This document shows positions 2,084-3,097 of a stretch of DNA of 3,673 nucleotides, piece by piece. Source of the stretch: Escherichia coli. GTDB lineage: Bacteria > Pseudomonadota > Gammaproteobacteria > Enterobacterales > Enterobacteriaceae. The translations under genes and the position numbers were made by a program. The stretch lies in assembly GCF_003334765.1 (NCBI RefSeq), contig NZ_QOWT01000069.1. One strand, written 5' to 3'. Under the pieces are notes generated by a model. The model searched no databases. It worked only from the letters and a program-made list of their open reading frames with translations, and was not told where the DNA came from. The stretch's first letter is position 1, and every line of letters starts with the position of its first letter.

Positions 2084-2252
2084 TAATCTGGTACGTTACT
2101 GGCTCTTCCGTTGATTCTTATGGGCTGATAAAGTTTTGTCTGCTGAATTTTTATACGGAATTCTTTTCAGTATGCGTACACGAATTGACTATCTGGCGGA
2201 TAAATACGGTTTTACAGAATTGAATGAATCTCCATATCTTCGTCGGCAGTAG

Positions 2253-3097
2253 CAGGATGTTCTGGAGGAGTGTCGGCAGACAGAGGCAGGGCCAGAAGAA
2301 CTGCTGCGTATTGCCCTGCTGAATGTGGATTACGTCACCAGTTTTGAACTGCCTTTTCGCTTGCTGCTTACCTGCACACCACAACTGATTGCTATGCTGC
2401 GTGAAGAATGGGACATCAGCCAGAAAAATGTGGTGTTCAACGATAAACGCTTTGGCTGCGTGTACAGCCTGAAGGCCAGTCTTTGTGGTGTGCTTCAGGC
2501 CGATGCTTAGGCGTTATACGAATCCGGCAGAGTAACGGAAGCCGCGTGTATGGCTCATTCCCGGAGAAGAATCCACGATGTGCATGTAAGAGTGCCAACC
2601 GACATCACCACGGAAGCCCTGCAGCGTATCGGTGAACTGTATGCCACCGAGGCAGAAGTCCGGGGATGTTCAGCAGAACAGCGTCTGGCAGCAAGAAAAG
2701 CCAGAGCTGCGCCACTGATGCAGTCACTGTATGACTGGATACAGACTCAGATGAAAACACTGTCGCGTCACTCGGATACGGCAAAAGCGTTCGCATACCT
2801 GCTGAAACAGTGGGATGGCCTGAATGTGTACTGCAGCAATGGCTGGGTGGAAATCGACAACAACATCGCAGAGAACGCCTTACGGGGAGTGGCCGTAGGC
2901 CGGAAAAACTGGCTCTTCGTGGGTTCCGACAACGGTGGCGAACATGCGGCGGTGTTGTACTCGCTGATCGGCACATGCCGTCTGAACAATGAGGAGCCAG
3001 AAAATGGCTGCGTTACGTCATTGAACATATCCAGGACTGGCCGGCAAACCGGGTACGTGATCTGTTGCCCTGGAAAGTTGAACTGACCGCTCAGTAA
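2253..3097 (+). pseudogene. IS66-family transposase (TnpC) gene remnant: 5'-truncated, with an amber stop and a -1 frameshift
   Basis: From about 2487 the translation carries IS66 TnpC motifs: GVLQADA, then (after TAG at 2508..2510) ...[39 protein letters not shown]......PL...L..W......TLSRHS..AKAFAY.L.QW..L..Y...[45 protein letters not shown]. The frame breaks in the A-run at 3001..3004; the +2 frame then gives [31 protein letters not shown] and stops at TAA 3095..3097, a typical TnpC C-terminus. The N-terminal roughly 200-300 codons of a full TnpC (about 520 aa), and tnpA/tnpB, are absent. The upstream in-frame segment 2253..2486 is only weakly TnpC-like, so the 5' boundary is uncertain. 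Confidence 0.8.

Follow-up and report, generated by a model that had tools for sequence, protein, structure and literature searches.

An open frame interrupted by amber codons that runs into the remains of an IS66-family transposase gene can be read in two ways, either as a divergent member of the IS66 family whose middle region is poorly conserved, or as foreign sequence fused to the 3′ half of tnpC, and the question here is which of these applies. The stretch of DNA analysed (referred to as the window) is 3673 bp of E. coli chromosome, and its entire length is present at 99.9–100% identity in 24 of 5426 complete genomes. Its context is a sugar-utilisation and capsule-associated island region with agaR, malX, malY, an alpha-galactosidase gene, and kps genes. 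We are highly confident that the interrupted frame consists of two unrelated dead gene fragments fused by an old deletion, in the course of ordinary decay of an E. coli genomic island. The feature is already known, in that both pieces are carried as pseudogenes in RefSeq/PGAP annotation.

Translation of positions 2115–3097 in frame 0 gives FLWADKVLSAEFLYGILFSMRTRIDYLADKYGFTELNESPYLRRQ*QDVLEEC... (the first part, through the first TAG). As the first-pass annotation had claimed, the frame is open from 2115 to 2510 save for the TAG at 2250–2252 and reads on past the TAG at 2508–2510 into the IS66 region, with the ATG at 2550 in-frame; the peptide quoted in that annotation is also reproduced exactly. 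The two TAGs are the only stops in the frame from 2115 until a TGA at 3084–3086. This openness is not a chance occurrence, as the sequence from 2172 onward is real (dead) coding sequence, and the segment 2115–2171 is stop-free because the 5′ leader of the gene on the left happens to contain no stops. The features of the window are collected in Table 1.

Table 1. Features of the 3673-bp window, with the evidence for each assignment. L003 and L006 are comparison loci described in the text.
Positions	Strand	Feature	Evidence
254–1421	−	UxaA/GarD-family pseudogene	PGAP annotation in window-type genomes
1417–2104	+	Upstream remainder of the same island relic as the ECs1377-family fragment: leader, intact UCP030791-family ORF (1571–2083), and spacer	Homology to L003 and L006
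1571–2083	+	UCP030791 family putative phage-derived protein, intact	PGAP
2105–2171	+	5′ leader/upstream of ECs1377-family gene, non-coding	DNA homology to intact locus L003 from 2105
2172–2493	+	ECs1377-family pseudogene, codons 1–107 of ~207	NF052300, DNA identity, protein alignment, PGAP
2172–2492	+	ECs1377 family protein pseudogene as annotated, with internal stop and missing C-terminus	PGAP; older name 'DNA-binding protein'
2250–2252	+	First amber, TGG (Trp27) to TAG point mutation	L003 and L006 have TGG
2487–2493	+	Deletion joint, 7-bp microhomology GGTGTGC	Present in both parents, three-way display
2487–3097	+	3′ part of IS66-family tnpC (IS679/ISCro1-like), from TnpC residue 317 of 523	DNA identity, BLASTP, NCBIfam
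2508–2510	+	Second amber, at scar of 12-nt in-frame deletion	Alignment to IS679
2511–3097	+	IS66-family tnpC pseudogene as annotated, frameshifted, N-terminus missing	PGAP
3001–3004	+	Frameshift, 1-nt loss in A run (A5 in IS679 to A4)	Alignment gap; PGAP 'frameshifted', pseudogene end 3097
3098–3127	+	IS right end, terminal inverted repeat ending ...GAGCCGCTTAC	Homology to IS679 stops at 3127/3128
from 3335	−	acnB paralog, then citG/citX/citF	PGAP

The remnant on the right, 2487–3127, corresponds to the 3′ 641 bp of an IS679/ISCro1-like element; IS679 is said to have been described by Han et al. in 2001, in J Bacteriol. Over 2487–2509 plus 2510–3128, DNA identity is 96% to the IS679 copy in locus L004 and 94–95% to ISCro1 copies. 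BLASTP of the remnant against IS679 TnpC gives 91% identity (E 2e-110) in an alignment starting from residue 317, and the NCBIfam model transpos_IS66 (NF033517) matches with E 1.1e-54 over profile positions 220–377 of 387. The earlier placing of the start of IS66 similarity at about 2487 therefore proves exact, both in the DNA alignment to IS679 and by BLASTP. The description of 2253–2486 as weakly TnpC-like was wrong: in the quoted peptide, TnpC sequence is confined to the seven C-terminal residues (GVLQADA, 2487–2507), and upstream of 2487 there is no similarity to IS679 TnpC (best BLASTP E 0.30), giving a precise truncation point there. Descent from an IS66 transposase is accordingly limited to 2487–3097.

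The Pfam domains of IS679 TnpC are LZ (residues 46–121), zf-IS66 (128–172), DDE_Tnp_IS66 (186–472), and a C-terminal element (479–516). The remnant represents residues 317–523. Both DNA-binding domains (leucine zipper and zinc finger) are missing from it, and the DDE domain has lost its first 131 residues, so that it falls short of the full-length TnpC of a functional IS66 element; one TAG and one frameshift interrupt it as well. In L004 the IS679 copy, the ends of which were located by motif search and by its 8-bp target duplication, measures 2704 bp from GTAAGCG at its start to CGCTTAC at its end, with the duplication GATAAAAA on either side. The window has only one of the two terminal repeats, with CGCTTAC at 3121–3127 and GTAAGCG nowhere. 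It has neither tnpA nor tnpB, as homology to IS679 begins at about element position 2051, inside tnpC, and the DNA upstream belongs to the ECs1377 and UCP030791 families.

The left part of the frame has a different parent. The translation of 2115–2507 matches the NCBIfam family NF052300 (ECs1377_fam) with E 1.6e-40 at profile positions 1–92 of 190, and window positions 2105–2493 align gap-free, with 92% DNA identity, to a locus containing an intact 207-codon gene of this family (L003:5068–5691). The ATG of the intact gene aligns to position 2172, and the DNA homology stops exactly at 2493. In an alignment (A1) with 13 full-length family members from Escherichia, Kosakonia, Citrobacter, Phytobacter, and Pseudocitrobacter, the window fragment aligns to residues 1–107; the common ATG and the invariant N-terminal block LRIALLNVDYVTSFELPFRLLL are kept, indicating homology by descent, and protein identity to a full-length E. 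coli member is 88% over these residues. The score against the full NF052300 profile is 138.6 bits, below the curated cut-off of 190, with profile positions 1–92 alone being matched. The left part is a fragment derived from an ECs1377-family member, and not an intact member. Homology to the island backbones of L003 and L006 is also seen upstream of the fragment (1417/1420–2035), where the intact ORF encodes a 170-aa UCP030791-family protein (WP_001167450.1). This ORF has no match in NCBIfam or PHROG and has 85% DNA identity to longer (549-bp) versions in other islands; ATCC 25922 carries it with a frameshift, and in strain SWHEFF_69 an IS3-family element cuts it.

Members of the ECs1377 family are conserved enterobacterial island proteins of about 207–213 aa, with 722 matches at E ≤1e-5. 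ECs1377 itself (Z1635), located in SpLE1/O-island 43,48 of E. coli O157:H7 Sakai, is listed as a 'hypothetical protein' (PMC1890555), and a full-text literature search on ECs1377 returned mention of it solely in that form and in that paper. Pfam gives no significant match to the ECs1377 protein (HTH_39 at E 1.6, residues 168–207), and in PHROGs the family matches phrog_24243, which is annotated as of unknown function. An AlphaFold2 model of the protein is of moderate quality overall (mean pLDDT 69.5). Its N-terminal half is predicted poorly, but the C-terminal domain (~125–207) is confident (pLDDT ~88) and has helices followed by a beta-hairpin, so that a helix-turn-helix plus wing is predicted. 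Foldseek searches of the PDB with this model gave no match at E ≤0.001, and the weak ones are winged-helix proteins (e.g. TFIIE and PadR/MarR-type regulators). The older 'DNA-binding protein' label for the family is plausible but weakly supported. The C-terminal half of the gene, with the predicted winged-helix domain, is missing from the window fragment, and going by this moderate-confidence model the deletion may have taken the predicted DNA-binding half.

The parentage of both fragments and the breakpoint in each can be read directly from the alignments. ECs1377 homology extends to 2493 and IS homology starts from 2487, and the two share a 7-base overlap, GGTGTGC, as seen in a three-way display of the ECs1377 gene (...CTTTCTGGTGTGCCGGATAC), the window (...CTTTGTGGTGTGCTTCAGGC), and IS679 (...TACAGCGGTGTGCTTCAGGC). 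The chance of an overlap of at least 7 bp is about 4e-4, using the standard expectation for random joints. A 91-nt probe over the joint has a full match in only 46 of the 5426 complete E. coli genomes, and is 100% identical in these; in more than 500 other genomes only its left 37–39 nt match, inside ECs1377-family genes. The 7-bp overlap fits the signature of microhomology-mediated illegitimate recombination or slippage, which would account for the deletion. That both frames were joined in phase is a 1-in-3 coincidence with no detectable consequence.

An alternative explanation for the joint is that it was made by IS66 transposition, either through insertion of the IS into the ECs1377 gene or through a transposase-mediated adjacent deletion. 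IS elements commonly truncate neighbouring genes, and the remnant does have a true right-hand IS terminus, at 3127. However, transposase-made joints are located exactly at an IS terminus, and the joint seen here falls at TnpC codon 317, some 2050 bp into the 2704-bp element, with the left terminus, tnpA, and tnpB all absent; because it lies this far inside the IS, and away from its terminus, we take the joint not to be the work of a transposase. Nor is there an IS66-family terminal repeat (GTAAGCG...) at 2487–2493, the sole CGCTTAC/GTAAGCG in the window being that at 3121–3127, and the 7-bp overlap is itself a signature of illegitimate recombination. We consider an origin by transposition very improbable, and favour fusion by a deletion between short repeats.

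A second example of microhomology is present 1.5 kb away from the joint, in the dehydratase pseudogene. This paralog of garD, with about 86% identity to the chromosomal gene, lacks its N-terminus and contains an in-frame TGA (tca at 773–775 on the + strand). Relative to the copy in ATCC 25922 (L008, ~7783–8000) it has an out-of-frame internal loss of 218 bp, which is bounded exactly by the two copies of a 10-bp direct repeat, CCCACCACCA (972–981), and is the second microhomology deletion of the window. The tally of three nonsense codons and one frameshift in the first-pass annotation is an undercount, as the 218-bp deletion and missing N-terminus of the dehydratase and the 12-nt deletion in tnpC have to be added.

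The lesions in the two fused pseudogenes, and their distribution among genomes, are likewise seen directly. The first amber replaces a nearly invariant tryptophan (W27 is conserved at ≥90% in alignment A1); it is present in all 24 window-type genomes and absent in a second lineage described below. Three further replacements at nearly invariant positions of the window copy, R22Y, R44L, and R68C, are absent from the second lineage, and the four window-specific changes at positions conserved at ≥90% are consistent with relaxed selection. At the second amber, the IS679 codons GCT TAC GGT GGT TAC CGG GTG correspond to GCT TAG GCG in the window, and the bases lost between 2509 and 2510 are CGGTGGTTACCG. 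ISCro1 copies retain the 12 nt (84 nt vs 72 nt in the window), and the scar is common to both joint-bearing lineages. Beyond the frameshift in the A run, TnpC itself is encoded in the +1 frame, which ends with a TAA at 3095–3097.

The second lineage comprises 22 genomes (e.g. AR Bank #0349, locus L006) with the identical joint, the 12-nt scar and its TAG, and TGG at codon 27. Since this lineage has the same joint and scar, the fusion and the 12-nt deletion predate the split between the two lineages, and since it keeps TGG, only the window lineage has the amber at 2250. In L006 the tnpC remnant is cut again at the equivalent of window position 2632, leaving 146 nt joined to a melA pseudogene near tnaA; this sole comparison lineage thus ends short of the A-run frameshift at 3001–3004, which may be older or younger than the split. 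Identity between the window and L006 is 100% over 2415–2632 (L006 6314–6531), about 92% over 2105–2414, and 85% over 1420–2035. This sharp mosaic boundary suggests that the segment bearing the joint was recombined or transferred between island backbones that had diverged. Given the graded identity, the relic appears to have moved or recombined between island variants, and a linear history is a simplification.

On the right side, the IS right terminus together with the acnB-paralog flank (3128–3334) is found in 36 of the 5426 genomes, with nested truncations from the left: the 24 window-type genomes have 641 bp of the IS end, L009 has 74 bp, L010 has 13 bp, and one further genome has 7 bp. In L010, IS100kyp (of the IS21 family) abuts the last 13 bp. 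The nested truncations argue against selective retention of the remnant. Neither an undeleted ancestor (an intact ECs1377 gene, a complete IS679-like element, and the acnB paralog) nor an empty site was found in complete E. coli genomes, which contain only more-truncated versions, and deletion in one step is inferred rather than observed.

From these comparisons we infer an order of events. A complete 2.7-kb IS would have been present downstream of the ECs1377 gene and in the same orientation, with its right end beside the acnB-paralog/cit cluster. A single deletion between two copies of GGTGTGC would then have removed the 3′ half of the ECs1377 gene, any intervening DNA, tnpA and tnpB, and tnpC up to codon 316, perhaps by illegitimate microhomology-mediated recombination or replication slippage with no involvement of a transposase, and the frames would have come into phase by chance (1 in 3). 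The 12-nt tnpC deletion that gave the TAG at 2508 would have arisen before the joint-bearing lineages split, and may precede or follow the fusion deletion. The change of Trp27 to an amber, together with R22Y, R44L, and R68C, would have come later and in the window lineage only.

An island-borne second acnB paralog occupies the right end of the window, 3335–3673, and continues beyond it (L002 6335–9673), followed by the cit genes; it is about 80–83% identical to housekeeping acnB over the last 90 nt, and is intact in most window-type genomes, with an IS110-family fragment cutting it in strain GmM066. A perfect palindrome with a 14-bp stem (tagaactccgtcta gat tagacggagttcta; 3235–3265) follows the stop codon of the acnB paralog at a distance of about 70 nt and is probably the terminator of that gene; a simple terminator scan missed it. 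In ATCC 25922 the ECs1377-family gene is independently cut (L008 9202–9221) at the equivalent of window position ~2199, at about codon 9, and is joined to a fatty-acid-synthesis-like cluster. The ECs1377-family gene is a repeated casualty of rearrangement at this locus.

We also considered whether the relic might be partly working, with the ORF at 2550–3086 (178 codons), or the chimeric frame read through its ambers, being expressed and kept, perhaps to inhibit transposition or as a fusion that has been domesticated. This ORF is intact and has an ATG start, and 46 genomes, in two chromosomal contexts, share a joint region of 100% identity; recent common descent or transfer would explain this identity equally well. 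Two ambers and a frameshift that replaces the conserved C-terminal element argue against such a role, as do radical changes at nearly invariant ECs1377 residues, and the shortening of the same IS remnant to 146 nt (L006), 74 nt, 13 nt, and 7 nt elsewhere gives no sign of retention. In a scan of 1400–3400 for promoters and terminators the counts were equal to or under the shuffled expectation. We regard a working relic as highly unlikely. An RNA element is likewise rejected, as a scan of the whole window against Rfam (E up to 1) returned only a chance miRNA match (E 0.63, 20 bits vs a gathering score of 82). The more specific proposal that ORF 2550–3086 is expressed as a truncated TnpC fragment (the C-terminal third) that interferes with transposition of resident IS679/ISCro1 would, if true, explain the 100% identical joint region in two chromosomal contexts, but we find it barely credible. 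No functional product is expected from the relic, because the ECs1377 fragment is without its predicted DNA-binding half and the transposase is without its DNA-binding domains, the N-terminal catalytic half, and the left IS end.

Of the two readings with which we began, that of a single old pseudogene of a divergent IS66-family transposase spanning 2115–3097 is rejected and has next to no chance of being correct, since the continuity of the frames and the true TnpC identity of GVLQADA, just before the second TAG, are set against a left part (2115–2486) without TnpC similarity that starts at position 1 of another family's profile with its own ATG, and against an abrupt end of ECs1377 homology and an equally abrupt beginning of IS679 homology within a few bases of each other; the second reading offered, of foreign sequence fused to the 3′ half of tnpC, is the correct one.

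The relic in itself matters little, other than as a clean and fully resolved case of the decay of an E. coli genomic island, in which a microhomology deletion would have fused two genes, with a stop-creating deletion, a nonsense mutation, and homopolymer slippage thereafter. It also carries a caution, that a recognisable domain entered by an open frame from unknown sequence is no evidence of a divergent family member. The IS-end truncations (36 genomes) and the common joint (46 genomes) could be lineage markers for the island.

Each part of the relic can be compared with a known system. Like the ECs1377 family elsewhere, the window fragment follows a UCP030791-family gene, the usual setting on the island backbone, but unlike other members it ends after codon 107 and carries an amber at Trp27. 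Like IS679 and ISCro1, the remnant keeps the 3′ part of tnpC and a terminal repeat ending CGCTTAC; these elements have a tnpA-tnpB-tnpC organisation, a length of 2704 bp, and an 8-bp target duplication, whereas the remnant has 641 of the 2704 bp, without the left end, tnpA, tnpB, and TnpC residues 1–316, and also differs from IS679 in the 12-nt deletion giving a TAG and in the 1-nt frameshift, and is a relic and not an element. The joint resembles the microhomology-mediated deletions of bacterial genome decay in having a short direct repeat of both parents (7 bp here) exactly at the breakpoint, and nothing about it is unusual among deletion joints of this kind.
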